A stretch of DNA of 64,000 nucleotides from Dictyostelium discoideum (taxonomy: Eukaryota), in the NCBI GenBank assembly GCA_000004695.1, contig CM000153.2, positions 2,336,001 to 2,400,000 of the forward strand, given 5' to 3'. The notes under the pieces are model-generated. The model did not search any database and was not told the origin of the DNA. It worked only from the letters and a program-made list of their open reading frames with translations. The stretch's first letter is position 1. Every line of letters starts with the position of its first letter. Shown here piece after piece: positions 3,113 through 58,344 of this stretch. Position numbers and translations under genes: made by a program.

Positions 3113-3410
3113 TTTTTTTTATCTATTTTTTATTAATTACTATTATTAATAATTTTTTAATATTCTAATTTTAATAATAATTAATTTAATTAATATTAAT
3201 AAATTACTATTATTATTATTATTATCTTTTAAAAAAAAAAAAAAAAATTATTTGGTTTTAAAAAATAAAATAATTATTTGATTTTAAAAAAACAAAAAAA
3301 GTGTGTGCGGGAATGTTTTATTACTAAAAAAAACAAACAAATAAATAAAATAAATAAATATTATAATATTTTATAAAATATTTTTTAAAAAAAGAATGAA
3401 TAAATAAGAA

Positions 3411-3461
<51 letters not shown>

Positions 3462-3775
3462 TTTGTTTTAGAAAAAATAAAAAAAAAAAAAAGATGAATT
3501 ATGAATATTATAATTAGTTAAATTCTTTTAATTAAAAAAAACCAACTAATAATAAACGAGGACTTTTTTTGGAATTAATTGCTAAACGATTCCAAATTAT
3601 TTTAACAAAAAATCTTTTCTGAAAAAAGTTAAATTATATATATAAATAAAATTATTTTTTCCTTTTTTTTTTTAAAAAATTGATTTTCTTTTTTTTTTTT
3701 ATTATAAACACTTTTTGTTTAAAAAAAATTGATTAAAATAAAAATTTTAAAATAAATTGTTTAAAAAAATAAATA

Positions 3776-3808
<33 letters not shown>

Positions 3809-5053
3809 ATATAAAATACAAATAACACACAAAAACAGTGAATAATATTAATATGGTTTGTTCAAGTAAAAACAAAAAAAATGTTTTTAAATATTATATG
3901 TACATAATTGGGGTGAAATATAGTTGGTTTGGGTTAATTTAATTTATTTTTTTTTTAAAATCACACGCAAAAAAATATTTTCTTTAAATCAATCTAATTA
4001 TTTGTTTTAAAAAAAAAAAAAAAAGTGTGGTAATTTTTTATGTGCGAAAAAATTTATATAATTATAAAGGCGTTTAATAATTATTTAATATTTTTTTTTA
4101 AAAAATACTAGGATATCCAAATATGTTTATAAACTCTTTTTTTTTTAAAAAAAAAAAAAATTTCCCCACAATTAAGTAAATCGACCAATTATTTTTATTT
4201 GATTGACTATTTGGTACATACGATTGGATATTATTTTTTTTTTTTAGTAAAATAAAATATAAAAAAATAAAATTAAAAATAAAAAAAAAAAATAATATTC
4301 TTATTAACAATAATTTGAAATCTAAAAGTAAAATGAGGATTTTATTAACAACTAAAATGATGTTGTATGATGGTGATGTTGTTGGTTTTATAAAAAAATA
4401 TTGATGTTAATTTTTAATTATTATTTTTTTATTTTATTTTTTATTTTATTTTTTTTATTTTTTTTTTTATTTTAATAAAATCTATTAAAATTTTATTTTT
4501 ATACCTGAAAAAGAAATAATAAAAAATAAAATTTTACTTAGAGAAAAACAAAAAACTTAATTTGGTCTTTATACTATTTACACATAAAAAACAATAAAAA
4601 CCTAATAGATGGATTTTATTACACAAACTAATTTTAAAATAACAACACTTAAAATAATTATTATAATTTCTTACCACACAAATTCTTATTATTACAGAGC
4701 TCTAATTATAATTATACATTTAAAATTAAATATATTTTAAAAATAAAAAATAAAAAAAATAAAAAAATAAAAAAAAATATATTAATTTTTTTCCAATATT
4801 TTATTATTACCATACCTTGGTAATTTTAAAAATAACCCAAGAAAAAAAAACAAAAAGGTTGGTTCTTTGTTTGTTTTATTTTTACTAAAATGTTTTGTAT
4901 AAACCACACAACACAACCACAATATTTTATAAAAAAAAAATAAAAAAAAAAATAAATAAAAAAAATTTTCTGAATCAGGTAATTTACGAAAATTATTTAA
5001 TTTAAATAATTATTTTTAAGGGGGTTATTCAACATTTAATTTAATTTTAATTC

Positions 5054-5091
<38 letters not shown>

Positions 5092-5126
5092 CTTAATTAA
5101 ATTAAAAATAACGAAAGTGCTATAAA

Positions 5127-5157
<31 letters not shown>

Positions 5158-5415
5158 AAAAATTATCTTAATTTAATTAAAAGTAATTTTATAACTTATT
5201 TTGGGGTTTTTTTTGATTTGTAGAAATTTTTTAAAAAAAAAAAGTTTAAACAAAAAATAATTTAATTATACTACTTTTTTTTTTTTTTCCCTATTTAAAA
5301 AAACATTTTTAACTGAAAAAATGTATATTAATAAATTAATATAAATTCATTGTAAAATTAGTATTATTGTTTTTAGATTTATTAATGATAAACTACATTT
5401 TTTTATTTTATAAAA

Positions 5416-5459
<44 letters not shown>

Positions 5460-5605
5460 TATATGTAAAAGAGGAAAAAAATAAAAAATAAAAAATAAAA
5501 TACATATAATTAATGAATGGTATTGTTATTTTATTTATTTAATTTAATTTTAATTTTTTATATTGAATGGGGTTATTTATTTATGAGAGAGAGAGAGAGA
5601 GAGTA

Positions 5606-6988
5606 TTACAAATTATTTTTATTAAAAATTCTATTACTAACACTTGCAACATATATTGATACAGGTATTGATGAATCAGATTGAATGAATTGATAATCAG
5701 TATTTGCAGGTACAAATAAGATTGAACCTGTATGAAGATTATTTAAAGTTGATTGATTTGATTTGTTTTCAATTGATAAATTACCTGAATAAACCAAAAC
5801 TATTGAAGGACCTTTACTTGAGTATACATTTATATTTTTACAGCAATCATCTAAATGATAGTATTCCACTTGAAATTCGTCAACGGGTGGTTGATAACAA
5901 CGATAATTAGTTAAAGATAAATCGGGTCTTTGCTGTGGTACCACTAGATCAGGTCTCCCAGTTCTGTAGGTCAACATATCACCAAGGGTGTCTACATCCT
6001 TTAACTTTGGTGTTAACCCTGCTCTAACCACATTATCAGATGGTGCCATACATTCAACACAATCACCCGATATATATGCATGTGGTTCACCAGCACCTAA
6101 AAACAAAGCCTCACCAGGTTTCAATACAATATAATTTAAAATATATGCAAAGAATACCCCAACGTCACCTGGATATTGTGAATAAAGTTTCAAAACCAAT
6201 CTATCCAAATCATCTCTCTCCTCCTCCCTCTTTTCATTCAATCTATTATTTAATTCCTTTAAATTATTTGATATTAATAAACCATCTGCTTTTAATAATG
6301 ATGTTACAATACTCTTTAAATATTCTTTACAATCATCTAATTTTATTACTAAAAATATATGTAAATATATTAAATTAGTATATACATATACATATATACA
6401 TATATGCGTGTGTGTGTTAATAATAATAATTACAATTATTTGGTAAAGAATTTTTAAATTCTGGTATTGTGTCTATAAATGATTGAATTTCTGATAATGG
6501 TCTAAAACTACATAATGCTTCGAATGGAGTTGTTGCAATTGCAATCTCTGGTTTATGATATGGGTCTTTATAGATGTTTGGATACTTTTTAAATAAAACT
6601 TGTGCTAATTGTGAATCTGGATGTGCTTGAATTGAAAGTGCTGTTCTAATTGATAAAACTTTAAATAAAAATGGAAAATCATTACCAAATCTTTTTTCAA
6701 CAATTTCACCTCTAATTGATGATGATGATGATGATGATGTTGATGATTTTTCATTTATTTCTTTTTGTACTGTATCGATATATTCTCTTAATTTTAATTC
6801 TTTATTTTTATATTCAACTTTTGATGGCGCACTAACATGATCACCCATCCAAAGTTCTGCATATGGTATTGTTTCTTTTATAATATCACTACATTCTTTT
6901 GCATATCCTTTTAATAATTTTGCAACTGTACTATTTGAACCATATTTACCCCATTCATAATTTTGTGAAACACATTTTAATAATACAA

Positions 6989-7043
<55 letters not shown>

Positions 7044-7049
7044 TTCCAT
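5606..7049 (-). CDS. Mannose-6-phosphate isomerase (type I PMI), 2 exons
   Basis: Exon 1 is 6434..7049 and exon 2 is 5606..6348 (minus). The intron 6349..6433 runs GTAATT...TTTTAG, with phase-1 continuity. PMI signatures are YEWGKYGSNS, ELWMGDHVSAPSKV, ALSIQAHPD and GEPHAYISGDCVECMAPSDNVVRAGLTPK. The N-terminus has an 18-residue poly-Asn run. Confidence 0.85.
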
Positions 7050-7058
7050 TTTATAAAC

Positions 7059-7089
<31 letters not shown>

Positions 7090-7825
7090 AGATAGAAAAA
7101 GATAAATATATATGTATAATATTAATAATTATGAATGTGGGTGGGATAGTTTTTTTTTCTTTTTATATTTTTTTTTTTTTTTTTATTTTTTTTATTTTTA
7201 TTTTTAATTTTAACCCAAATTTTTAAAAAAAAAAAAAAAAAATCTTTAACAGGTAGGCAATCCAACTCATTTTTCAACTTTTTTTTTTTTTTTTTTTTTT
7301 GGATCAATTTAATTTCAATTTTATTTTATTTTTTTTTTTTTTTTTTAAACATATCGGCAGAAGTTCACCAAAAAATAAATATAAATATAAATCTATAAAC
7401 AAAATGGAAATAAAATAAAAAAATAAAAAAAATAATAATAAATTAATTACAAAGGTGATCCTAATTATTTTTTACTTTTATTTTATTTTTTGTTTTTTTA
7501 TTTTTATATTTTTTTTTAAGGTGTTCAGGCAAAATTTGAAATTTCATTAAAAAAAAAATAAAAAAAAAAAAATTAAAAAAAGTGAAAATAATAAAAAATT
7601 TCGTATTAATGTTGTCATTGGATACATAATCACTTTTTTTTTTTTTTTTTTTTTTTTAATTTTTTTTAAAAAAGACAAAAATAATAATAATCACACACTC
7701 ATACCACACTTTTTTTTTTATATTTTCTCAACACTTTTTTTTTTTTTTTTTTTTGTTTATTTATTTTATATACATATATATCTAAAAAAAAAAAAAAAAA
7801 TTTTGACTAAAAAAAAGAAATAAAA

Positions 7826-9747
7826 ATGAATTCATTTTTAGCTCGTGTTGGTTCATTAGGAAATATATTTAAATCTAAATCATTTTCACAACAATTTAGG
7901 AAAAATTTAAAGAATGAAAGTTATTATAAAAAAGTTAAAAGTAGTTGGATGAATGCAACTCAAAAACTCTTTAAATTAGATGAACCAACAAAAGGAAACA
8001 ATGTTACAATCTTTTTTACAGGTGATGAAATGTTTAGACATATGTGGGGTTGTATTAAAAGTGTAAAAATTTAAATTAATTATTAAAAAAAAAAAAAATA
8101 ATAAAAAATGTCACAAATAGAAAACTAAAAATACAAATTTTATTTTATTTTTAATTTTTCTATTAGGCAAAAGAATCAATTTATTTAGAAACATATACAA
8201 TTGAACCAGATTTAATTGGTAATAAAACCATTGAATTATTGACAGAAGCACAAAGAAGAGGTGTTCAAGTTAAATTTGCATATGATTCAATTGGTAGTTC
8301 AGGATTATCAGATTTTGATATTTATGAAATGAGAGTTTCCGGTGTTGATATCTATCAATTCAATCCGGTTGAAATTAGTTCAATATTACCATACACATTA
8401 AGAAATCATAGAAAGATTATAGTTGTTGATGAAAAGTATGGTTTTTGTGGTGGTATGAATATATCTGGTAAATATGCTTCATCAAATATGGATGGTGGTA
8501 AAGATTATTTCCGTGATACTCATTGTATGATTGAAGGACCTGCCGTTAAAAATCTTTTAAATATTTTTCATGATTCTGTTAAAGATAAAAGAATCATTGA
8601 AAAACCAGTAAATAAAATTGGTTCACCTGCTTTACTAGCTCTACATTTTCCATATGCATCTGAAATGGATTCCAAAATATATAAAAAACCAATTTATGAA
8701 TTAAATGAAGAATTTAAAGAATCAATTGAAAATAATAATCAATATATAAATAATAATGATAATAATAATTATAAAGATAAAGAACTTGATGATGAATATG
8801 AAGATGAAGATGATACATTTAATGATATAACTCAATCAACATATTATCATTATCAACCACCAATAAATAGTACAAATTATACAAATAATAATAAAATAAG
8901 GCAAAATGAAAAGAATTTAATAAAATTAGAAACACAACAACAATTTTTAAAAGATGAAGATTTAACTGAATTTACAATTGAAGATGATGATGATGATGAA
9001 GAAGGAGAGGATGATGATGAAAATGAAGATGAATTTAAAGAATTTGTATCATTAACAAGTGAATATAAAAATTTAGAGAATTTAAATAAATTAAATGATT
9101 ATTTGAATGATGAATCAAATATAAATCTAAATAATGGTAATGGTAGTGGTAGTAAAAAGATTGAAATAGTTCAATCAAAGACTATTTCAAATGCAGTTGT
9201 TCAAGTTCAACAATCAAATCAGTTTAGAAATAAAAGGGAGATTCAAAAAGCATTATTAATTGCATTGAATAAGTCGTATGATCATTGTTATTTCACTACA
9301 CCTTATTTTTTACCACCAAGAAAATTAAGAAAGGCAATTGTTAATGCCGCAAAACGTGGTGTTGATGTAAAGATTATTACGGCTGGAAAAAGTGATGTCC
9401 CTTGGTTCCGTAATGCTTCGAGATATATTTATCCACTTTTTTTAAAACATGAAAAAATTAAAATTTATGAATTGGAATCAATCACTTTACATGCGAAAAC
9501 TTTATCAATTGATGGTATGTATTCAACAATTGGAAGTTACAATTTGGATACCTGGTCTCAAAGAAATCTCGAAGCGAATCTCGCCTTCTTTAGTCCAAAT
9601 GTCGTAAAAGTTTTAGAAGATCAATTTAAAAATGATCTCAAATCCTGTAGCGAAGTAACCTTAAAAGATATTGGTAACCGTCCATTTTTAGATCGTTTAA
9701 TTTGTTTTTTCGCTTTCCAAATGAGTAAAATTTTAAAACCAACGTAA
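7826..9747 (+). CDS. PLD-superfamily (2x HKD) bacterial-type cardiolipin synthase-like protein, 2 exons
   Basis: Exon 1 is 7826..8062 and exon 2 is 8167..9747. The intron 8063..8166 has a GTAAAA donor and TTTCTATTAG acceptor, phase 0. HKD motif 1 is HRKIIVVDEKYGFCGGMNISGKY and HKD motif 2 is HAKTLSIDGMYSTIGSYNLD. The N-terminal repeat (AKESIYLETYTIEPD) is typical of Cls. A long acidic/Asn-rich insert lies between the two catalytic halves. The basic, amphipathic N-terminus (MNSFLARVGSLGNIFKSKSF) is consistent with a mitochondrial presequence. Confidence 0.75.
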
Positions 9748-10807
9748 TAAATAAATAAATAAATTAATAAATAAAAATAAATAAAAAATAAATAAATAAA
9801 AATAAAAATAAAAATAAAAAAAAAAAAAAGTAGTGTTGCCACTTTCTCATTTTGAGATTTTGCCAAAGTTAAAAGTGATGAAGGTGTAGGTTATAAAATT
9901 TTTTTCAATTTTTTTTTTTTAGTGTTTTATTTTTTTATTTTAATTAAATTTTTCTTTTTTTTTTTTTTTTTTTTTTTTTCTTTTTTTGGATCGAGCACAA
10001 AATCATAGATATATCTAAAATGATTTATTTTAATTAGAAAGTATAATAATAAAAAAAAAAAATAATAATAAAAAAAAAAATATAAAATAAAACACTGATT
10101 TTATAATAAAAAAAAGATTGAATTAGCAGATTACACTTTTTGAATTGTTTTATTTTTATTTTTATTTTTTTTTTTATTTTTTTTTTTTTTTATTTTTTTT
10201 TTTTTTAAAAAAAATTTTTTTCCAAAAGATATTTTTTTTTTTTTTCTAATTTTTTTTTTTTTTAATTTTAATATTATTATTAAGACATAAAAGGATATTA
10301 AAAAAAAATAAAATAAAATAAAATAATCACCTACAATACACACACTCACTCGCACACTCACAATTTAACAACTCACAAACAGCACACCACACAAATAAAG
10401 ACAACTGAGATTATCATGTTGTTTTATTTTTAAAAAAAAAAAAAAAAAAAAAAAATAAAATAAAAAAAAAATAATAAATAAATAAAATTAAAAAATATAT
10501 GTATATTTAATTTGTAGTATAATTTTTATTTTTTTTTTAAATTAATTTTTATTATTTTTTTTTTTTTAAAACACCATTTATTGTAATAATAATACTTAAT
10601 AATAATTAATAATAATTATAATAATATTAATAATAATATAGTATAATTTAACTCCCTTATAAACTTTCAATATTTCATAAATAGTAATATCATAAATAAT
10701 AATAAATATTTTAACTTCATTTAAAGTTATAATTTATTATTTTTCATATATATATATATTTTTTTTTATTCTAAACTACACCTTATAAATTAATTTTTTT
10801 TTTTTTG

Positions 10808-44796: not shown

Positions 44797-47142
44797 ATGG
44801 ATAGTGATGAAGAAACAGTTTTTAAAACACCAATAAAAAGAAAAAAGAGTACAACAATTATTGATGAAGAAGATGATGATATTTTAATAGATAAAGTTGA
44901 TAATGGTAATAACAAAGGTGATGATGAAGATATTAATTTTAAAACACCTTCACCAAAAATAAAGTCAAGATTAAAGAGAATTAAATCGTCACCTTCTTCT
45001 GACATTGATTTCACTCCATCACCAAAATCAAACCAAAAATCCAAAAATGGCACACCAAAAAGTACAACATCTTCACCAAAAATTGCAAATTCAACATCAC
45101 CATATAAACCAACAATAACACCACCAACAACTCCATCACCATCAAAAAAGGACCAAATTAAAAAGAAAATTAATAAATCTCCAATTTCTGCTACCCAATC
45201 TCCATCATCATCACCATTATCACAACCAAAATCAAAACCAATTCAAAATAATAATGATAATAATAGTTATGATAATGAAATTACTAATGATATTGACAAT
45301 CCTTGGGATTTCGGTACATCAGATATAAGAATGAATGATGATGGATCAATGTCAAATGATAATCAATATTTTGCAACACCTGAAAAATATTCTTCACCAT
45401 CAAAACAACAAGACCAAGATAAATCTCCATCACCTCAAAAAAATGTAAATAAAAAAAATGAAAAAGATTTTAAAATTAGTAACAAAAAAGTAATTTTAAG
45501 ATCAATTAAAGATAAGGACTTACTTTCTTTTAAAGGGGTTTCAAAACTTTATAATTCCTTAAAACTTTCTGGTTTCTCCACAAAACAGTCAAATAAAGTA
45601 AGTAATATTTTTTAAAATATATATTTTGACCATTTTATTTTAGAAAAAGGAAAATATAATAAAATAAAATAAAATAAAATAAAAATTTAAAATTAAAATA
45701 TTTCTATTTACCAAACTATAGGCAAATTTAGAAAAGTTATTTGGAATTTACTCTAAATGGACAAAAGAGCTTAATCCATATGTTACACTAGAAAATTCAA
45801 TTATTAATGTTGAGAGGTTGGGTAGAAATAGAATTGTTAGAGTAAGTAATAAAAAAAATAAATAAATAAAAAATTTAAAAAAAAGAAAAAGAAAAAAAAA
45901 AAATAGAATACTAACTTTACACTTTTTTTTTTTTCTTTTTTTTCTATTTATAAATCTTCTTTATAATTTTTTTTATTTTATTTCGTTAATAAATTTTTAG
46001 AATCATATTGATGATTTAAAGAATGGTATAGTGTTTAGTTATAACGAACCAAAAGTAGGTATCATTTTTTATTATAATTGGTGATTTTTTTTTTTTTTTG
46101 GCAATAGATTGTTTTGGTAAAATGTCGGTTATCGTTTTTTTAAAATAGTGTGTTTGTAATATAACCTTAAATATCTTTAATTTTTTTTTTTTTTTTTTGG
46201 TCCCAAAATGGACTCTTTTCCACTTTTACTTGTTTTTTTAAGTTAATAATAAAAAAAAAAAGAAACCATTTATAATAAAAAAAAAAAAAAATCATTTATA
46301 ATAATAAAAAAAAACAAATCATTTATTTATATTTATTAATCCACAAACATTTCACCACAACACAACACAACACTTCACAAAACACAACTATATTGGGTGG
46401 CTTCTGTGAGGTTAATGCATTTAAATTTTTAATCTCCTCGTTTACCACCCTAAATTAATTGCTAATGATGTCGTTTTTTGAAATTTTACATTTATGGTGT
46501 GTTGATTAATATGTGGGTATGTGTGTGTGTGTAACAACCACCCTTCCTCTTATTATTAACCTCCATTTTTACCCGAATGTTTATTTCATTTTTCACAATC
46601 ATTATCTCTTATCTCCTTATACCTATGTTGCAAAGATACAATTATAGGACAGATACGGATAAGACAACTTTATTATTATTATTATCATTTTTATTTTTAA
46701 AATAATTTATGGTTTATAATTGACCTTTTATTTGTTTTACATGTGTGGTGTGTGGTGTGTGGTGTGTTGTAAGTACTTGTGTGGTTTGTAATCAAAATAA
46801 ATTTTAAAAAGATAAAAAGAAATAAATAATCATAAAAACACAATCAGTACTGTTTTTTTTTGTTTCTAATTTTTTATTATCGTTATTATTAATTTTCTTT
46901 GAATACTAACATAAATTTCCAAATAATAAATAATAATTGTATTTTAGGATAATCAAAACGATGTTAATGATAATGATATTAAAAATAATAATAATAGTGA
47001 CGATTTTGATTTTGATATTGATAATGAAATATCAAATCCAAATAATAGTAAAGTTGATTTTGTGCCACCTCATCAAGCTAAAAAGAATGATAACACCCAT
47101 TCAAATTCTTTTGGACAATTTAAAAATAATAATATTAGTAAT

Positions 47143-47197
<55 letters not shown>

Positions 47198-47385
47198 TTA
47201 ATAATAATAATAATTTTAATAATAATAATAATAATTTTAATAATAATAATATAAATAATAATATAAATAATAATATAAATATTTTTAAAAAAGTCGCAAC
47301 TACCTCTATTTTACCACCTAAAGATAATAACGGAGGTAGAGGAGGCGGAATTAAATTATCTCTTCCCAAAAAACCATCAAAATAA
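44797..47385 (+). CDS. Ser/Thr-Pro (CDK-consensus)-rich basic nuclear-type protein, at least 3-4 exons
   Basis: Exons are 44797..45597 (many S/TPxK sites such as KTPIKRKKS, FKTPSPKIKS, FTPSPKSNQKS), 45722..45841 (ANLEKLFGIYSKWTKELNPYVTLENSIINVERLGRNRIVR) and 46001..46054 (NHIDDLKNGIVFSYNEPK). All three have GTAAGT/GTAGGT donors. A putative last exon 46948..47385 is in phase after an 893-nt intron, and this last join is inferred only. Confidence 0.5.
46741..46776. promoter_or_regulatory. GT-rich G-box-like element (TGTGGTGTGTGGTGTGTGGTGTGTTG), a candidate GBF-type developmental enhancer
   Basis: The sequence motif is visible directly. Similar islands lie at 46503-46533, 49188-49212 and 49658-49692. 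The functional assignment is an inference. Confidence 0.3.
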
Positions 47386-47501
47386 AAATAGAAACTTATT
47401 TTTTTTTTTTATTATTTTTTTTTTTTTTTGGTTTTTGGTTTTTGGTTATCAATACCAATCAAAAGGGGAAATATTGGTCATTTAAATAAATAAAAATAAA
47501 T

Positions 47502-47542
<41 letters not shown>

Positions 47543-47999
47543 AAATTTATATATTTTTTATTTTAATTATTTCTTTTATCTTTTTATTTTTTAATTTTTT
47601 TAAATTAATCTTTTTTTATAAAAATATTATAAAAATCGATTTTGTTCAAGATCGATTTAAATCTAATACTACAAATAATTAAAAAAAATACAATCTGCAT
47701 AATAAAATTATTTTTATTATTATAATAACGAAAATATAAAAAAAAAAATAATTATAAATTTTTTTTTTATTTTTTATTTGTAATTAGAAGATCAAATACA
47801 ATAAATAGATCTTAAATATAATCATTACAAAAAGGTTTTTTTTTTTTTTTTTTTTTTAATTATTTATTTATTTCATTATACAACAACAAAAAGGAATCAT
47901 AAAAAATTTTTTTTTTTTTTTTTAATTATTTTTTTAATTTTCTTTTAAAAAATCGATTTTTCCTATATTCAATATATATATATATATATGTATCGACAC

Positions 48000-48039
<40 letters not shown>

Positions 48040-50459
48040 AAATAATCAAATTACAACAAGCGTGTTAGGCAAATTTTTATTTATTTTTTTTATTCTTTTT
48101 TTATACTTGCATTCTTTTTTTAAAAGAAAGGTGTGGGAATTCCTAATTACAAAAGAAAAATTTTTAGGAGATTGTATTGAGATAAAAATAGATTCAATGT
48201 CGAAAATGATTTCAGGTTATATTTTTTTTATTTTTTTTATTTTTTTTTGTTATTTTTATTAATCTAATATGATGGTAAAAAAACAAAAAAATTAATGGAG
48301 CAGTTCACAAGATTTTCCAATTTTTCTTTTTTTGGAAGATTTTAAACAAAAATAAAATTTTAAAAAATATTTTTATTTTTAATGTATGGGAGTTTTCAAT
48401 TTTTATTTACGTGGGTAGGAGTAATAAAAAAAAAAAAAAATTATTAAGTACCAAATTTTATAAATTTTCTTCATTTAATATTCCCAACTACAAAAAAAAA
48501 ATCCAAAAATCTAATTATCTACCTACCAAATTTAACTATTTTTAGAATATTTTTTAACACCAAAGCATTTCTCAATCATTTTTATTTTTATTTTTATTAT
48601 TTTCATTTTTACAAGTAGATATTTTTTTATTTTTTAATAAAATTAACATCGTAATTAGATATTTTTAATTAATTTTTTATTTTCTTCTTTTCTAATTTTT
48701 TTTTTTTTTTTTTTTAAAAAAATCTCAATGTTTTTGCAAAATTTTTTTATAATAATTTTATTTTATTTTATGATTTGTCAAAAAAAAAAAAAAAAAATTA
48801 TTAATAATAATATTAATTGGAATATTTTGTAAACTGTCTTTTTAAACTTTCAATCCCACATGCACACCACCTACACACGATTGCTTATTGAAATTATCTG
48901 TAAAACTTTAAAAATAGATTAGTTTGTATATGTAAAAATGTTAACATTTTTGTTTTATTTTTGCCAGTGTTTGTTGATTTTTCATGATAAATAAATATTC
49001 AATTAATTTATTGTGAATAAAAACAAATTGATTTCAATATTGATAAAAAAAAGTAGTACTACTCAATATTACCACGCATTTACAAAACAAATAAAACACT
49101 ACAACACACACACACACACTAACAAACAAGCTAAAACACACACACATTTTAACCCACTAGATAGAATATTCTATTTTTTGTTAGTTTAGTTAAGTGTGTG
49201 GGTGGGGGTTGTCAGTTTTAATAGCAGATTAAATCTACCCCTTAATATCACACGTACTTCCCAAATTCTATTTAACATTTTATAAAAATAGGGTTCGGTA
49301 AATTAATAATTACAAAGCTCCATTAATTAATTTGGTGGTATTTGGATTTAAAAAATGTAATGGTGCCTGGTGCCTAGTAGTTGGGGTTTATAAATTTTAT
49401 TTTTTATTTTTATTTTATTTTATTTTATTTTATTTAATTTTATTTTATTTTGTTTTGTTTAATATAACTATATTTTTGTCTGTTTTATAAGATTTGTTGG
49501 GCTTGAGTGTGTATGTTGGTATTATTGAATATCAATAATTTTAAAAGTTTCATTGATACATGATATTATCTTATCTATTTTTTGGTACTTATTCACTTTG
49601 TGAAACTTGAAATAATAATAAGATCGTATGAACAGATTATTAAAGTATTATTTTTTCTTGTTGTGTGTGTGTGGGTGTGTAAGTGTGTGTGGTAAATATT
49701 TATTTTTTTATTATTGTTTTATATTTAAAAAATTCTCTTACCAAAATAAAGTATCATCTCATATTATTGTCAATTTTAAAATTTTAAAACAATTCATTAT
49801 TGATATTATTTGATATTAATAATTTTGAATAACAACATATTATTAACTAACTACAAAAAAAAAAAAAAAAAAAAAAAAAAACACAATTAATTATTTATTT
49901 ATAATTAAAAAAAAAAGAAATTTTATTTATAAAAAAAAATCAAGTAATAACAATAACATTGTTTGTATTATTTTATATAAATTAATTTTTTTGTTTACAC
50001 TTTTTGATAAAATTTATATAAAAATTAGAGTTGCATTGCCTTTTTTTTTTTTTTATTTATTTATTTTTTTTTTTTATTTAATTTATTTTATTTTAAATTA
50101 TAAAATAATTTTTTTATTTTTTATTTTTAATTATTTTATTTCTTCCTTAATTTTGGGTGATTTTTCAATCTTTAAATAACAGATATTTAGTTTTTATTGT
50201 GGTCGTAATAACATAATACAAAATTAATTTAAAAAATAAAAAAAAAATAATTGGAATTTTAAAAAAAGATAAAGATATTTATTATTAAATAAATAAAAAA
50301 AAATTGTGTAATATACCTGTTCCATATTAAATACACACAATTTTTTTAATATAGCAGTTTCATTTATTTGTATAAATATATTTTTATACTTTAATTTTTT
50401 TTTAAATCTACCTCCAACCAAAAAATAAAAAAAAAAAAACTAAAACAAAAAATAAAATA

Positions 50460-50510
<51 letters not shown>

Positions 50511-50787
50511 CTAAAACACCATCAACAACAACAAACGCCACCAACACCACAATAAGAACACCAATATTTACATCCCTACATTACCAACAAAAAAAACCAC
50601 CACTAGTAACAAACCACTACCAAATACATTCCTTCCACTCATGTTTATTACAAAACTTGATATTTTTCAATCTACCCAATATATTAAACATTGAATATTA
50701 ATTTTTTAATTTTTTTAAATTATATAACATTTTTTAAAAAAAAAAAATTAAAAAAATAAAAAAGAAGATTTAAAAATAATAAAAATA

Positions 50788-50824
<37 letters not shown>

Positions 50825-51218
50825 AAAAACAATAATAGTAATAAAAATAACACCAAAATAATAAAAATAATAATATTATCAATAACAATAAAATAAAAAA
50901 ATAAAAATAAATAAAAATAAATAAAATAAAATAATATTATAATCAAAAAAAAAAAAAAAAAAACAAAAAAAAAAAAGAGATAAAAACCCAAATTAAAAAT
51001 CAATCATTTTGACAAGGTCTATTGTTGGGTTAAAATAAATTAATAAATTTAGTTATTATTAATAAAACCACGGCAAAAAGCCAAAATAATAATAAAAAAA
51101 TAATACTTATAATAATAATAATAATAATTCTCATTGAATTAGTTTAAAAAAAATAATAATATTTATTTCCAATATTTATTTTATTTATTTTTATTATTAT
51201 CTATTTATTTTTTGGTTT

Positions 51219-51265
<47 letters not shown>

Positions 51266-52416
51266 ATTTAAACAAAACAATAAGTTTTAATTTTTTATAA
51301 ATAATTTAAATATAACAGTGTCCAATTAAAAAAGACCAATTTAAATTAATTTTTATCTCTAAAGGTATCTTTTTTAAAAAAAAAAAAAAAAAATTATAAA
51401 AAATCATTATTCTATATATAAATTTTTATAATTATTTAAGAATATTTTTAAATAATAAAGCCTTCACCCCCCATCAAACACACATTTTTATTATTTTTAT
51501 TATTACTCATACAAAAAAAAAATATCGAAAACCACCATACAATCATACATATACATATTTATAGTTTTTGAATTTTAATAAAACATTATAACTCCCACAC
51601 TCACACACAGCAATAAATTTTAAAAAGTGTAAAAGAAAATTAGTTTTTTAAAAAATTATTCTCCTAACCACCCCAAAAACAAAAAATTATTCTTTTATTA
51701 TTAAAAATTTTTTTTTTTTTTTTTATCGTTGTTACATTTTTTATTTAAACCATTTTTTTATTTTTTTTTTTTATTTTATTTTCAATATTCAAATCACATT
51801 AATTAATATCCTATTGCTCATACCTTTTTAACCTAAAATTAAATCAATTTTTACTTCTTTTTTTTTTTTTTTTTCAAAACCACCAATTATAAATTGAATA
51901 ATAAATAAAATTTTTTAACTTTTTTTTCAATCAAAAAACCACCGTTTTTAAAAAAAAAATTTTTTAGTTACCAATTCGTTAGTTTTTAAAATAATTTTAA
52001 GATCATAATCACCCCAAACCACTGCATATCTTAAAAAAAAAAAAAAATTATTAATTAATTAAATTTCACAAATAAATCCTTATCCTTAGTAAAAAATTAA
52101 TCAACAAAATATCTACCGTAATTTTTTTTTAAAAATATCTTCAATCAATTAATTAATTAACATAATTTTTACCAAAGTAATAAAAAAAAAATAAAAAAAA
52201 AATAAAAAAAAATAAAAAATAAAAAATCTATAAATAGAGAACAAAAAAAAAAAAAATAAAAAATAAAACATTAATCACTACAACTGTAACATTAAAAAAA
52301 TAATAAATTATTTATTTCAAAAAAAAAAAAAAAAAGATATAAATAGTTTTTAATAAATCCAAAAAAAAAAAAAAGAAGAAAATAAAAAAATAAAATTTTA
52401 TATTTCCTCATTTACA

Positions 52417-52520
<104 letters not shown>

Positions 52521-52565
52521 GATCAATTTATTTAAATAAATAATTTAATAATAATAAATAATAAA

Positions 52566-53651
52566 ATGTCTTTATCTTTGGGTGATATCAAATTTCCAGA
52601 TAATTGGGATTTAATTCCAAATGAAAAAAATTACATTGATTATGTTTACAAGGAATCAATTGAATTAGAAGTATGGAGACCAAATAATAAAAGAGATTTA
52701 ATGGCACATAATAATGTTGTAAGTTTGGCTAAATATTTCTGGCCACATGTTGATTTCAATAGATTAGTAATGGGTGGAGAATTAATGGTATGGTTCTTTT
52801 CATTTGATGATGTTCTTGATGCTGGTATCTACACTGATGAAAAACAAATGGATTTGGTGAAAAGAATGGATAATGTGTTTATTAATGGTACTGTTGAGTC
52901 TGATGCAACTGGTCCAGAGAAGATGGCTCTCCACCTTAGAAAGAAATGTGAAGTAATGTGTGGCAAAAGAAGAAAGGATACCTTCAACCGTTTCATCTCT
53001 TCATGTGTCCAATGGGTCGATTCAATTATTCCATTCAATAAACTTCGTTCAGCTCAAGGCACATCCCCACATTTAGAATTATACTCATACTTGAGAAAAG
53101 TTAATATCGGTGCATATCCATGTGTCACTCTTACTGAAGTAATGTTAGATCATGAAATTGAATATTACATTTGGTCAGACCCAAAATGGATCAAAATGAA
53201 CGAAGACATCGCCATCATCACCACCTTAATCAATGATTTAGTATCCTATGAAAAAGAAGTCAATGATCAAGCAGGTGACTTGAATCCATTATACTTCCTC
53301 CAAAATCAAAAGAATATTCCATTACCAGATTCTTACAAACAAGTGGTTGATCTCATTGATTTCTGGGTAAAAGATTACCAAACCATGGAACAAAGTCTCT
53401 TAAATGAAATGGAATTTAAAGATTCAAAACAAAGAAGTGATATGGAATTCATATTGGAACATCTTCGTTATTTAGCTAGTGGTTCAAAGAAATGGTCAAT
53501 GCAAACACCTCGTTATTGCTCTCCAACTTCTCCATTCATTGAAATGAGAACTAAACCATCAACTCCAGTTATGAATTCTACAAAAAAACAAAAAATTGAT
53601 CATGTTCCATCTCAATCATTTATTTCAACACCAATTGATTTAAATAATTAA
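52566..53651 (+). CDS. Microbial-type class I terpene synthase
   Basis: This is a single 361-aa ORF. The metal-binding DDxxD motif is [10 protein letters not shown]. The NSE/DTE triad is NDLVSYEKE. The overall size and helical composition match the Dictyostelium and fungal terpene synthase family. Confidence 0.75.
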
Positions 53652-53894: not shown

Positions 53895-54761
53895 AATTTC
53901 CATAGTTTATAATTAGAAATAAAAAGTCGGTTATTTTTATTTTATTTTTTAATTTTTATAAAAATTGAATAAAAATTTTATTGAGTTTTATTTAAAATGT
54001 TAATTGAAGGTGATAATCTGAAAATTAAATAACGTTTAAATAAAAATTTAAAAAAAAAATTAAAATTTAAAAAAAAAAAAAAAATAAAAAAAAAAAAAAA
54101 CTGTTTAAAATGTTTAAAATTATTGATAGGTTAAAAAATGGATTTACAAATAAATGGATATTGTTCCATTCTAAAATGAAAAAAAAAATAAATAAAATTA
54201 ATATCTTAAAAAAAAACCAACATAATTTAAAAAAATAAAAATTGCTAAAATATATTTTTTAAATATGATGTCATTCAAATGATTTTAATTTTAAATAATT
54301 TTTACAAAATGATATTTATTGGATAGTAAATAGCTGAATTTTATTAATTTAATTTTTTAAAGTGGACCAATTCCATTATACAATTTGATTATATAAAAAT
54401 GGTATACTTGTAAAAAATTAATGGCGCAATTAATTTTATCTTTTTTTTAAAAAAATATTTATTATTTTATTATTCTATTTAAAACTATTAAAAATAGTTT
54501 TTTTTTTTTATTTTTTTTTTTTAACTGTATTAATAAAATAATGGAATAACAAAAATTATGTTGTAGGGAATTTTCCATAAAATTTCACTACAGTAGCGTA
54601 GTGAATTTTATTATTTAATTTCCCTACAGTAGCGTAGTGAAAAAAAAAAATCACTGACCTTAAATTTTTTTTTTTTTCAAAAAACAAATAAAGTTTATTA
54701 AATTGAAATTTTATTTTTTGTTTTAATTATTATTTTATTTATTTTTATTATAATTATTGTT

Positions 54762-54801
<40 letters not shown>

Positions 54802-54942
54802 CAATTTTTTTTTTTTAAATTTTTTTCAATTTTTATTTGTTTATTAAATTGTAATTTTATTTTTTGTTTTAATTATTATTTTATTTATTATTATTGTTAA
54901 TTTTTTTTTTTTTTCAATTTTTTTTTTTTTAATTTATTTTTA

Positions 54943-55340
54943 TTAATTTATTTTTATTAACTCCCTGAGTTGTTCAATTGCTTGATTTACCATATCACTG
55001 TAAACACTGCACACAATTGAATTTTTTCTAGCTTTGTTACCTCTGGTGCATTTGATGTTTTTGCATTTTCCTTTGTATACAAAAAAGTCCAAATATAATT
55101 CGTTTTCTATTACAGTTTTTACACAATGTTGGTGAAATTGTTTTGATTTTAATTCTAATGCTTCTAACATCATATTTGAATTTTTAACGATTAAAGCATC
55201 ACCACTATTTACATATAGTACTTTGGCTGCTTTTTCGAGGAATTTAGTCAAATTTTCCTCTGAATCTAACTATTCTTCATTGCCATATTCAATGGCTAAA
55301 TTTCTTAAGAGTTTTATCGAATCTATTAATTCTTCGATCA
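54943..55340 (-). pseudogene. Second short ORF inside the transposon, interrupted by an in-frame stop (MIEELIDSIKLLRNLAIEYGNEE*LDSEENLTKFLEKAAKVLYVNSGDALIVKN...)
   Basis: The 102-aa ORF 54943..55251 extends upstream in frame to an ATG at about 55330, but it is broken by TAG at about 55262. Its function is unknown. It is flanked by ~150-bp internal tandem duplications (54690-54760 and 54840-54905). Confidence 0.35.
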
Positions 55341-55704
55341 TTCTTTTTTTTTGAAATTTTTTTTTATTTTGTTTTTTCAATTTTTTTTTTTTATTTTGTT
55401 TTTTCAATTTTTTTTAAGTTTTATTTTTTTTTATTTTTTTTTATTTTTTTTAACAAATGTAATTTTTTTTTATTTTTTTCAATTTTTTTTTTTTTTTAAT
55501 TTTTAATTTTTTTTTTTTTTTTTAATTTTTTGTGTTGATTTGTGTTTTTTTTGTTTTTTTGATTTGGCCACTTGTTTTTATTTTCTAATTTCCCCATACC
55601 CCCTTCTATTAATTGCAACCAAATCAAGTTCTAATTTTTGTGTCCTTGTTGACTTTGTTTTTGCAACTTTTTTTGAAGGTATCACATTAACGATTTTTCC
55701 TATT

Positions 55705-55940
55705 GATGGTGATTTGGAAGGTGATTTAAATGGTGATTTAAATGGTGAATTGGAAGGTGATTTAAATGGTGAATTGGAAGGTGAAATGGATGGTGATTTG
55801 GAAGGTAATTTAAATGGTGATTTGGAAGGTGATTTAAATGGTGATTTAAATGGTGAATTGGAAGGTGAAATGGATGTTGATTTGAGAGGTGATTTGGATG
55901 TTGATTTGAGAGGTGATTTGGATGGTTTAGAATGTGATTT
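55705..55940. repeat. 12-bp-period tandem repeat (GGTGATTTGGAA/GGTGATTTAAAT/GGTGAATTGGAA...), about 20 copies, abutting the assembly gap
   Basis: A direct read shows the repeat. The + strand reads (GDLEGDLNGELEG)n and the - strand reads (KSPSKSPFKSP)n. The coding strand cannot be assigned. Confidence 0.8.
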
Positions 55941-55974
55941 TAAAGGAGGTTTATTAACAATTGGTATCTTATGA

Positions 55975-56094
55975 NNNNNNNNNNNNNNNNNNNNNNNNNN
56001 NNNNNNNNNNNNNNNNNNNNNNNNNNNNNNNNNNNNNNNNNNNNNNNNNNNNNNNNNNNNNNNNNNNNNNNNNNTGTTCTAAAAATATCAACTG
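55975..56094. other. Assembly gap (120 N)
   Basis: A run of n characters is visible in the sequence. Confidence 1.
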
Positions 56095-57759
56095 TTGATT
56101 GTTTATAAAGAACCAACTTGTTACCTCCTACAAAACCAGAGTATAAACCTTTTTTTTGAAGGCTATTGATTCCATCTTCCAAAAATTCAAGTTTATAAAG
56201 TTGTTTAGTGTCTTCCTGTATTACCTTATGAATTTTACACAAAATCAATATTTTCTATTAGAATTAAATATAAAATTTGTTAATTATTACTGTTTCATAT
56301 ATTATTAATCTTTATGTTTTAATTACTTACATTATTTTTTTTAATTTCTAGAAAGAGTACAGTATCACCAACTTTCAATCCCTTTGGTGGTTTTGAATTC
56401 CATTGATTTTGGTAACTTGTGAGATTTTCAAGAATAATAGCTGTTCTTTCTTCTTTTGAAACATCTGAAACACCAATTGATTGAGAGTCTTGTTCTGATT
56501 GAACATTAATAAACAAAGGAACAATACCAACAGCTTGAGATGGTTTCATTTTAATTGTTCTTGTTTTTGTATTATTGTAATCATACAAAGCTTGTTTTAA
56601 TAGTTCAGAAAGAGACCTAGAAGTACCATCAAGAAAACTAAAATTTATTTATAAATGATTAATTAATAAACATATCGATAATTTATATTGTTCACAATAT
56701 CATACTCTTGTTGTTTTAATTTTGAGATCCTCTCCTTGATAGTTCGATTCAATCTTTCTACCATACCTTGAGTTGTTGGTGTACGAGGAGCTCCATGTGC
56801 TGACTTGGAGCCTGGAAAAAGTTTTAGGAATTCTTTTTGGACTTTGTTTTTAAATTCACGTCCATTATCGCAGTGCCATACTTTCACAGGTTTGCCAAAG
56901 TACGTGAGAGCCAAAAAATTGTATATGGGAACTGTTCTCTTTGTTGTCAAACATCTAAAAAATAAATGATAATTAAAATAAAAAAAGAAAACTAATAAAT
57001 TAATAAATAAAAAATAAATACCTTCCAGTAGCAAATTTTGTAAAAGAATCTATGCATAGAATAATGTAAACAACATCGGTGTCGTACGGTTGTACAGAGT
57101 CATATTGGATAAGATCATCTAGTTTAGTTAGTATCTTTTCATTATCATCATCGTATGTAACTTTTTCTTTATGTTCACCTTTAATTGATGTTAAATCATA
57201 AACCAATCTTGAGTATTCCTCGGTATCTACAATTGGAGCAAAATCCTTTGTTATACCTATTAATTTATTTAAATTATTAAAAGAGTTTTAATATAAAAGT
57301 TACAAAACATCATATAAAAATGATTGATACCAAACCTTTTATTCTATTTCGTTGGCAAATGTCACACGTATCTACTGCATCAGATACAAAAGAATACAAT
57401 CCCATATTATAATATTTAGTCTTGTAGTTCCCATAGGTTGCATCTCTTCCTATATGACCTTTATGCATTTCTTCCCAGAGTGATACCATTCTATAATCAT
57501 TAATTACTTCTAAACACACTTCTTTTGATATATTTCTATCTCCGCCACAATTCATGACTTTTTTTTCAATTCTAAATAATTTTTCTTTTCTGTTTCTGTT
57601 TTTTATTGGTCAGAATTTAAAAAATGATTGTGTTATTGTAAGGAAAAATATTTACTCATCATGTAAAAATTTATAATTTTTATGTTTAGTATTTTCAAAA
57701 TTATTATCTTCAATAAATTTTAAATAATTTATAATTTCATTTATTTTATCTTGTTTCAT
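56095..57759 (-). CDS. Integrase-like transposase (HHCC zinc finger, DD35E core and SH3-like C-terminal region) of the Tdd-4-like element. Multi-exon, with the 3' end truncated by the N gap.
   Basis: See the mobile_element entry. The HHCC finger is H-x3-H-x29-C-x2-C. The core residues are ..DTD.., ..CDNG.. and ..E.. in ERLNRTIKE. The exon joins keep the frame. One junction near 56588/56663 is either a stop (..NYRYVY*) or a 68-nt GTATGA intron. Confidence 0.6.
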
Positions 57760-57774
57760 TTTGGGAAAATGAAA

Positions 57775-57809
<35 letters not shown>

Positions 57810-58344
57810 TGTTGGGGAAAAAAAAAAAAAGTTTTGGCCCAAAAAAAAAAAAAAAATTAAATTAAAAAAAAAAAAAATTAAATTAAAAAAAAAAAAAATT
57901 AAAAAACCTTTTTTTAAAACTATTATTCAATTAAAAAATAATATTTTAATAAACTTTTTTTGTTTTTTGAAAAAAAAAAATTTTAGGGCCAGGAATTTTT
58001 TTTTTTCCTTCCCCTCCTGGGGGAAATTTAATTAATAAATTTCCTTCCCCTCCTGTAGTGAAATTTTTTTTAAAATTCCCTCCCACCCTTTAATTTATAA
58101 AATTTATTATGAATAAAAAAAATTATTTTTATATTTCCAAAATTTATTATATTTTAAAAGAAAAAAAAATTTAATTTTTTAATTAATGAATAGAAAAAAT
58201 TTTATTTTCATTTTTTTTTTTGGGGGTTACCCCCTTTTTTTTTTTTTTTTTTAGTGTCCAATATGGTGATTTTTCCAATTGATAAAAAAAATTTTTTTTT
58301 TTTAAATTTTTTTTTTTTTTTTAAAAAAATTCAATTTCTTTTTT

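Follow-up and report, generated by a model that had tools for sequence, protein, structure and literature searches.

Terpene synthase 6 of Dictyostelium discoideum (DdTPS6) was reportedly discovered by Chen et al. (2016, PNAS), and Rabe et al. (2016, Angew Chem) is said to be the primary reference for it as a protoillud-7-ene synthase. The enzyme converts FPP to protoillud-7-ene (PMC6156593, PMC7356884), and the stereochemistry and carbocation route of this product have been given with citation of Rabe et al. 2016 (PMC7356884). Protoillud-7-ene is also made from FPP by DpTPS1, DfTPS1, AsTPS1, PpTPS18 and DlTPS1, and the clade that these enzymes belong to, clade I, is the sole orthologous TPS group common to all six dictyostelid species studied (PMC6156593). 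Protoillud-7-ene is the only volatile terpene that D. discoideum and D. purpureum have in common and is emitted by both (PMC6156593), and the DdTPS6 product has been found in the volatile bouquet (PMC6524965). Expression in the multicellular stage is documented for each of the nine DdTPS genes (PMC6524965), most of which are prestalk-enriched (PMC6156593). The developmental expression profiles of DdTPS6 and DpTPS1 are similar, and the DpTPS1 transcript is highly abundant with a maximum in the first half of development (PMC6156593). An earlier note, made from the letters of the present DNA, had proposed development-stage-specific expression, and this is already in print (PMC6156593, PMC6524965, PMC7356884). 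The position of tps6 as the single terpene synthase that every dictyostelid retains, making a product unchanged over several hundred million years, was established in 2016-2018.

Outside the dictyostelids, the closest solved structure by sequence is BcBOT2, the presilphiperfolan-8-beta-ol synthase of Botrytis cinerea (PDB 8h6q). Like DdTPS6, it is a class I alpha-domain sesquiterpene synthase; the alignment covers residues 46-322 with the DDxxD motif, the sensor Arg, the NSE triad and the RY pair in register, and the Foldseek target-normalised TM-score with the DdTPS6 model is 0.72-0.75. It differs in being fungal, in sharing only ~21% identity with DdTPS6 and in forming a different product, a tricyclic alcohol. 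The pentalenene synthase (PDB 1ps1) and T-muurolol synthase (PDB 9hqm) have the same single-domain fold, with target-normalised TM-scores of 0.79-0.86, and the same motifs. These two enzymes are, however, bacterial, only 16-20% identical to DdTPS6 and yield other end products. Pentalenene synthase, too, starts with a 1,11-cyclisation to the humulyl cation and is thought to pass via the protoilludyl cation.

For the DNA upstream of tps6, the closest described systems are promoters of Dictyostelium developmental genes that depend on GBF (G-box binding factor), whose response element is (T/G)G(T/G)G(T/G)G(T/G), i.e. KGKGKGK (PMC2257962). Similarly, the DNA upstream of tps6, a developmentally expressed and prestalk-enriched gene, matches the element many times, frequently as pairs and in either orientation. 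The tps6 candidate elements, in contrast, are spread over 5 kb, compared to a few hundred bases for the sigN promoters (PMC2257962). In the open literature on DdTPS6 we found no mention of the length conservation of its upstream spacer, of conserved blocks within it or of its G-box enrichment.

Locus and identity of tps6

The DNA analysed here is a 64-kb stretch, referred to as the window, and all positions below are positions within it. The window is extremely AT-rich, with a Dictyostelium-like composition of 14-37% GC in 2-kb bins, and its DNA is that of D. discoideum, at 99.4-99.5% identity to a contig of chromosome scale from a second assembly of this species. The coding sequence of tps6 (DDB_G0284707) occupies positions 52566..53651 of the + strand as one exon with an ATG start and 361 codons plus the stop, and it encodes DdTPS6, the protoillud-7-ene synthase. 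The GC content of this open reading frame (ORF) is 32.6%, compared to 15.5% across the 5,180 bp upstream. A search of a protein collection matched the 361-aa product to a D. discoideum AX4 protein at 100% identity and 100% coverage. The UniRef/UniProt name of the matching protein is Terpene synthase 6, TPS6_DICDI; the two are the same protein, with 361/361 residues identical and no difference at the protein level. Going by its sequence, the 52566-53651 interval is the intron-less tps6, which is already named and biochemically characterised, and the gene is not new. A full-text literature search for the locus identifier DDB_G0284707 gave no match.

After the self-match, BLASTP returned single orthologues in other dictyostelids at 61-70% identity. 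The highest value, 70%, was obtained between DdTPS6 and D. purpureum Terpene synthase 1 (DpTPS1), followed by 61-67% for Cavenderia fasciculata TPS1, Heterostelium album TPS18, Tieghemostelium lacteum TPS1 and a Polysphondylium violaceum protein. Paralogues from the D. discoideum species complex, at 42-47% identity, ranked below these orthologues. Orthology to DdTPS6/DpTPS1 places the protein in dictyostelid TPS clade I, the protoillud-7-ene synthase orthologous group. The described clade I orthologues (DpTPS1, DfTPS1, PpTPS18, DlTPS1 and AsTPS1) are 60-73% identical to DdTPS6 and carry the same motifs; they also form the same single FPP product and have a similar expression profile (PMC6156593). 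An upstream Swi3-like neighbour is common to D. discoideum, D. purpureum and T. lacteum. The differences lie in the C-terminal tails, which vary between DdTPS6 and the orthologues, in the gene structure, since D. purpureum and T. lacteum have one intron each, in different places, whereas D. discoideum tps6 has none, and in the upstream spacer, which is 1.4 kb long in T. lacteum compared to 4.4-5.2 kb in group 4 species.

Motifs, fold and predicted catalysis of DdTPS6

We found a match to the Pfam profile PF19086 (Terpene_syn_C_2) with an E-value of 2.5e-26 and 93.1 bits, against a cut-off of 23.7. This match spans residues 73-269 and profile positions 2-198 of 199. The plant-type profile PF03936 scored 24.9 bits, just under its cut-off of 26.3. 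The DDxxD metal-binding motif comprises residues 81-85 (D81, D82, V, L, D85; positions 52806..52820, + strand) and sits inside the ten-residue segment 78-87. The NSE triad motif NDLVSYEKE covers N223-E231 (53232..53258, + strand). Each motif is unique within the protein, and D81 and N223 are 142 residues apart. The ORF coordinates in the earlier note were exact, and its figures of ~360 aa and ~140 residues between the motifs correspond to 361 and 142.

Arg177 (53094..53096, + strand) is the predicted pyrophosphate-sensor Arg; it forms an invariant column and aligns to the LRR/LRK segment of BcBOT2. It is located exactly 46 residues N-terminal of the NSE Asn, N223, and a spacing of ~46 residues from the sensor Arg to the NSE motif is a known rule for bacterial class I TPSs. 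Near the C-terminus, W310, R316 and Y317 make up a WxxxxxRY motif (residues 310-317; 53493..53516, + strand), which has been described for amoebal TPSs (PMC6902781). We scored the conservation of these motifs on an alignment of 15 dictyostelid homologues. D81, D85, R177, N223, D224, S227, Y228, K230 and E231 were invariant among all 15, while position 82 was D or E, with E in two paralogues. W310, R316 and Y317 were conserved in at least 90% of the homologues.

An AlphaFold2 model built from the homologue alignment contains 14 helices and no strands (pTM 0.71, mean pLDDT 68.9), with residues 1-18 and 306-361 of low confidence or disordered; the all-helical protein foreseen in the earlier note is what the model depicts. 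Foldseek retrieved 249 PDB chains at an E-value of at most 1e-3, the best 50 of which were all microbial class I terpene synthases, with a probability of 1.00 at the top. Target-normalised TM-scores were 0.72-0.86 for the top matches and reached up to 0.86. By sequence, the nearest solved relatives were the fungal BcBOT2 (E 4.3e-15) and the bacterial synthases of T-muurolol, cucumene and pentalenene, and the DDxxD motif, the LR(K/R) segment, the NSE motif and the C-terminal RY were in register. The profile match, the DDxxD motif, the NSE spacing, the sensor Arg with the RY pair and the all-alpha fold of a microbial-type class I TPS are each present. Neither a lack of similarity to terpene synthase profiles nor a mutated DDxxD aspartate in orthologues was found, D81 and D85 being invariant. 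The class I microbial-type terpene synthase, here in a eukaryote that is neither plant nor fungus, proposed in the earlier note is borne out by the PF19086 score above the cut-off, the invariant motifs, the alpha fold and the 100% identity to DdTPS6. DdTPS6 belongs to the bacterial/fungal type of class I (ionisation-dependent) sesquiterpene synthases and consists of one domain that is entirely helical.

The roles that we assign to single residues in catalysis are predictions based on motif conservation and on solved homologous enzymes, whereas the substrate and the product are taken from the literature. By analogy to the solved relatives, the diphosphate of FPP would be bound by three Mg2+ ions, coordinated as a trinuclear cluster by DDVLD (81-85) together with the NSE triad (N223/S227/E231), and Arg177 and the R316-Y317 pair may assist in this binding. 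Abstraction of the diphosphate, i.e. ionisation of FPP, would then give the farnesyl cation, and cyclisation to the protoilludane skeleton followed by deprotonation would yield protoillud-7-ene. The tps6 gene is switched on in multicellular development, most likely via an extended upstream cis-regulatory region. No evidence contrary to the enzyme assignment turned up.

Extent, conservation and G-box-like islands of the upstream spacer

The intergenic spacer, a putative extended control region, covers positions 47386..52565 (5,180 bp, 15.5% GC) and reaches from the 3' end of a Swi3/Tipin-like gene to the tps6 ATG. This upstream neighbour lies on the same strand (+) and has its stop at 47383-47385; a Pfam Swi3 match is recorded for its orthologues in D. 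citrinum, D. purpureum and T. lacteum. The only gene with its 5' end toward the spacer is tps6. The 5-kb gene desert of the earlier note is real, its 5,180 bp containing no tRNA, no Rfam match and no conserved ORF. The longest ORF in the spacer encodes 77 aa of low complexity. When all 76 stop-to-stop ORFs of the spacer that reach 30 aa or more were compared by tblastn with four related spacers, none was conserved over more than 43 aa; the short matches occurred in various frames and on either strand, with no match at all in D. purpureum. On this result we rejected a hidden protein gene in the spacer.

A tRNA scan of the whole 64-kb window found none, and a nearby transposon is therefore not a tRNA-targeted element. 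At the gathering score, no Rfam family matched anywhere in the window, and at an E-value of at most 1 the only match in 46000-52600 was a chance-level one to a bacterial sRNA, which maps to the final exon of the neighbouring gene, outside the spacer. Dictyostelium ncRNA genes (Class I RNA, snRNA) carry the DUSE promoter element, WCCCAYAA, ~60 nt upstream. We counted 0 exact matches to this consensus in 47386-52565, the only DUSE-like sequence being a conserved TCCCACA at ~48854. With no exact DUSE and no Rfam match, a DUSE-driven ncRNA gene inside the spacer was set aside. A scan for bacterial sigma-70 promoters and terminators near the ATG gave counts below the shuffle mean and is irrelevant to a eukaryote. 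In one other D. discoideum assembly, a gene caller extends the upstream gene across the whole spacer, ending 27 bp before the tps6 ATG, whereas in four other assemblies this gene ends at the position homologous to 47385. We treated the gap-crossing model as an artefact because it ends in an (AAT)n repeat and disagrees with the models of the four other assemblies.

The synteny of the Swi3-like gene and tps6 is kept in six related loci, from five other species and a second D. discoideum assembly. The spacer measures 5,118 bp in D. firmibasis, 4,869 bp in D. citrinum, 5,043 bp in D. dimigraforme and 4,370 bp in D. purpureum, while the other intergenic regions of these loci span 0.09-1.15 kb. In T. 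lacteum, the order Swi3-like gene, spacer, tps6 is retained around a spacer of 1,406 bp. Over its full length, the D. discoideum spacer is collinear with its counterparts in the three closest species, and we aligned the four (D. discoideum, D. firmibasis, D. citrinum and D. dimigraforme) with MAFFT, defining a block by at least 70% four-way identity over 50 columns. Overall, 43% of the spacer columns are identical in all four species. About 20 conserved blocks make up 35% of the spacer and are spread over all 5 kb; blocks of 80-180 bp are as identical among the four species as coding sequence, some with 0.86-0.90 compared to 0.84 over the initial 300 bp of the tps6 coding region. Profiles of 14 conserved blocks, run with nhmmer on the loci of D. 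purpureum and T. lacteum, gave no significant hit and no match at a syntenic position.

The blocks and the G-box-like clusters alternate in several modules. A dense distal module at 48821..49694, 2.9-3.7 kb upstream of the ATG, contains four blocks of the four-way alignment (48821-48901, 48963-49102, 49241-49362 and 49517-49655) that are interleaved with G-box clusters of the CA type (48863-48878 and 49102-49146) and of the GT type (49193-49213 and 49660-49694). The middle module at 50531..50733 has CA-rich islands at 50531-50552 and 50610-50621 and a conserved CAATCTACCCA element at 50668-50678. Proximal modules lie 0.45-1.1 kb upstream at 51465..52128, with conserved blocks at 51760-51872 and 51945-52128 and CA-type G-boxes at 51465-51484, 51594-51609, 51663-51680 and 52008-52023. 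A further candidate element is ATCTACC, of which five copies share one strand.

We defined an island as a 12-nt sliding window with at least 11 G/T including at least 6 G, or the complement of this. The spacer contains 13 such GT/CA islands, compared to 1.2-1.3 ± 1.1 expected from first-order Markov simulations of the spacer (maximum 5 in 500). Sites for KGKGKGK number 29, in 9 clusters on both strands, against 2.2 ± 1.6 expected, so that multiple GBF-type elements are present above chance upstream of tps6, in a roughly ten-fold excess. In 2-kb bins of the whole window, the 46-50 kb bins hold 15 and 23 KGKGKGK sites, the two highest values of the window, the 50-52 kb bin holds 6, and no bin outside 46-52 kb exceeds 8. 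The orthologous spacers of four other species carry 20-22 sites each, compared to ~2 expected, including the unalignable spacer of D. purpureum, which has 22 sites (2.3 expected) and 12 islands (1.3 expected). Island density is 2.3-3.0 per kb in the spacer, compared to 0-0.3 per kb in the flanking intergenic regions. Toward the gene the islands follow the strand order CA, GT, CA, and this order is kept together with island position and number in the four species of the D. discoideum clade. The GT-rich, G-box-like islands of the earlier note are thus real and far above chance, but on the + strand they are GT-rich only at 49193-49694; the remaining islands are mostly CA-rich on this strand, as is every island closer than 2.2 kb to the ATG, which corresponds to the element in the opposite orientation.

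Readings of the spacer and the putative tps6 core promoter

Taking gene and spacer together, we are highly confident that the locus combines a class I sesquiterpene synthase, DdTPS6, with a 5.2-kb spacer that most likely serves as its extended cis-regulatory region. We assign the spacer to tps6 because no other gene has its 5' end facing it, and it is most likely a large developmental control region for this gene. We infer that the G-boxes and conserved blocks drive tps6, and a link from the G-box islands to tps6 expression would be consistent with the data. The expression of DpTPS1/DdTPS6 peaks in the first half of development, earlier than that of classical GBF-dependent post-aggregative genes, and GBF may therefore not be the relevant factor. 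The control-region reading fits the documented developmental regulation of tps6. The block sequences are not recognisable in D. purpureum or T. lacteum, which weighs on the same reading. Tentatively, the spacer could be something more elaborate, an unusually large multi-module array of developmental enhancers or alternative promoters, possibly with an unannotated non-coding transcript, and it would act on the only terpene synthase common to all dictyostelids; were this so, protoillud-7-ene would be under complex stage- and cell-type-specific control, as expected of a signalling molecule. The modestly new item at this locus is the conserved, G-box-dense and unusually long upstream region. At about five to ten times the neighbouring intergenic length it is exceptional in a compact genome, and it supplies candidate cis-elements for the control of protoillud-7-ene.

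Several other explanations were weighed against this reading. It is scarcely credible that the ORF represents a relic of a terpene synthase, decayed or without function, or a bacterial or fungal contamination of the assembly. Beyond the microbial-type fold nothing favours this, the ORF is uninterrupted and encodes exactly the reference protein, its catalytic residues are invariant among homologues and its composition is Dictyostelium-like; we exclude it because synteny extends over seven dictyostelid loci, introns are present in the orthologues of D. purpureum and T. lacteum, and the enzyme activity and in vivo product are published (PMC6156593). Besides controlling tps6, the spacer itself might hold one or more unannotated transcription units, either an ncRNA or distal alternative promoters or 5' exons of tps6, to which the blocks and G-boxes would belong. 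Blocks of 80-180 bp with coding-level identity would suit such units, as would a TATA-like TATAAAAATAGGG conserved near 49282, the exons called across the spacer in the other D. discoideum assembly, and alifold column-shuffle z-scores of -3.3 to -6.1 at 48960-49095, 49500-49660, 50300-50415 and 50600-50730. The consensus folding energies are small, however, at -7 to -15 kcal/mol per 115-160 nt, and palindromic binding sites of the TTGA/TCAA type could account for the folding signal. The spacer is also devoid of tRNAs, of Rfam families at the gathering score, of an exact DUSE consensus and of any ORF conserved over more than 43 aa (the matches being in mixed frames and strands, with none in D. 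purpureum), and the gap-crossing gene model with its (AAT)n end is contradicted by four other assemblies. We consider such units improbable.

We judge it similarly doubtful that the GT/CA islands are neutral dinucleotide-type microsatellites and that only the proximal few hundred bases drive tps6. Several islands are indeed plain (GT)n or (CA)n, with a length and exact sequence that vary between species, and T. lacteum manages with an upstream spacer of only 1.4 kb. Against neutral repeats, four species agree in the position, strand order and number of the islands, which also adjoin conserved blocks that are not repetitive. Moreover, the spacer of D. purpureum is equally enriched despite being unalignable, and the adjacent intergenic regions are almost without islands.

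A candidate TATA box, TATAAATA, is located at 52229..52236 (+ strand). Its CTATAAA core is identical in the four aligned species, three of which have the full TATAAATA octamer, while D. firmibasis has TATAAAAA instead. Downstream of the candidate TATA box follows a conserved AATCACTACAACTGTAACATT at ~52274-52294 (+ strand), and the two elements would together make up the tps6 core promoter with its start region. Further downstream, ahead of the ATG, lies an (AAT)n microsatellite of ~34 units (52420..52520, + strand). This repeat is expanded in D. discoideum alone, D. firmibasis, D. citrinum and D. dimigraforme having only short AAT runs.

Repeated motifs in the tps6 upstream spacer

We observed that the heptamer ATCTACC occurs seven times in the 64-kb window, against 2.7 copies expected, and that five of the seven lie within the 5.2-kb spacer upstream of tps6, every one on the + strand (48517, 49233, 50406, 50670 and 52111). 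The copies at 49233, 50406, 50670 and 52111 fall in blocks conserved among related species. The D. firmibasis spacer likewise carries five copies on the same strand, and none was found in that of D. purpureum. ATCTACC is a possible cis-element, as yet unassigned.

Conserved blocks upstream of tps6, at 47630-47665, 48976-49045 and 49521-49565, also contain palindromic or repeated elements of the TTGA/TCAA and ATCGAT types, for example ATTGATTTCAAT, TATCAAT(n15)ATTGATA and ATCGATT...GATCGATT. These elements are possible binding sites and the probable cause of the mildly negative z-scores that the upstream blocks gave in consensus folding.

Closer to the gene, an (AAT)n microsatellite of ~34 units occupies 52420-52520. 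Since it lies between the conserved TATA-like box (52229-52236) and the tps6 ATG, it is probably part of the 5' UTR. The AAT runs at the same position are only short in D. firmibasis, D. citrinum and D. dimigraforme.

The adjoining Swi3/Tipin-like gene

The gene on the far side of the spacer, which encodes a Swi3/Tipin-like protein, has an apparent intron of ~890 bp (46058-46946), unusually long for Dictyostelium and reaching 27-31% GC in parts. Three G-box-type islands, that is, GT- or CA-rich stretches, were located inside this intron (46352-46366, 46512-46544 and 46741-46770), and the 2-kb bin that holds it has the second-highest count in the window of KGKGKGK, the consensus of the GBF response element.

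In assembly GCA_054883475.1, the Swi3-like gene is modelled as fused across the entire 5-kb spacer, at 2262-9974 of its locus (L001), which corresponds to 44827-52539 here. The terminal piece of this model falls in the (AAT)n repeat just 5' of tps6, and the Swi3-like gene models of four other assemblies end at the homologue of position 47385. The fused model is a probable annotation artefact.

A putative insertion and an inversion downstream of tps6

Some 900 bp past the tps6 stop codon lies a 3.5-kb segment (54559-58088) that is missing from another D. discoideum assembly, where 54558 is joined straight to 58089 (L001). The segment ends in inverted repeats of 153 nt (54560-54712 and 57934-58086) and has an assembly gap of 100 N in its interior (55975-56074). 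In its minus-strand ORFs, the Integrase_H2C2 zinc domain is matched at 57313-57555 with E 4.8e-9, and rve is matched weakly at 56666-57034. We take the segment to resemble a DNA transposon of the Tdd-4 type; given this match, it would be a strain-polymorphic insertion.

The putative insertion sits in the spacer separating tps6 from a HAD-hydrolase/coatomer-beta gene pair on its 3' side. The orientation of this pair in D. discoideum (L001 12404-16800) is inverted relative to D. firmibasis (L002 12230-16553), D. citrinum (L004 11965-16202) and D. dimigraforme (L005 12238-16776). One inversion breakpoint must lie within the same spacer as the putative transposon insertion.

Orthologues and paralogues of tps6

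The tps6 genes of the D. discoideum clade have no intron. A single mid-gene intron, after ...IIPFNKIK, interrupts the D. purpureum orthologue (L003 10001-11211), and the T. lacteum orthologue (L006 10001-11139) has its one intron near the 3' end, after ...FIEMRK. Intron positions therefore vary, although the gene is otherwise very conserved.

D. citrinum, D. dimigraforme and D. cf. discoideum have paralogues with 42-47% identity to DdTPS6, the tps6 product; these paralogues may be relatives of DdTPS2. Two of them, the D. citrinum proteins P0009 (ACTFIU_008792) and P0012 (ACTFIU_008791), have consecutive locus tags on one contig, which suggests that their genes form a tandem pair.
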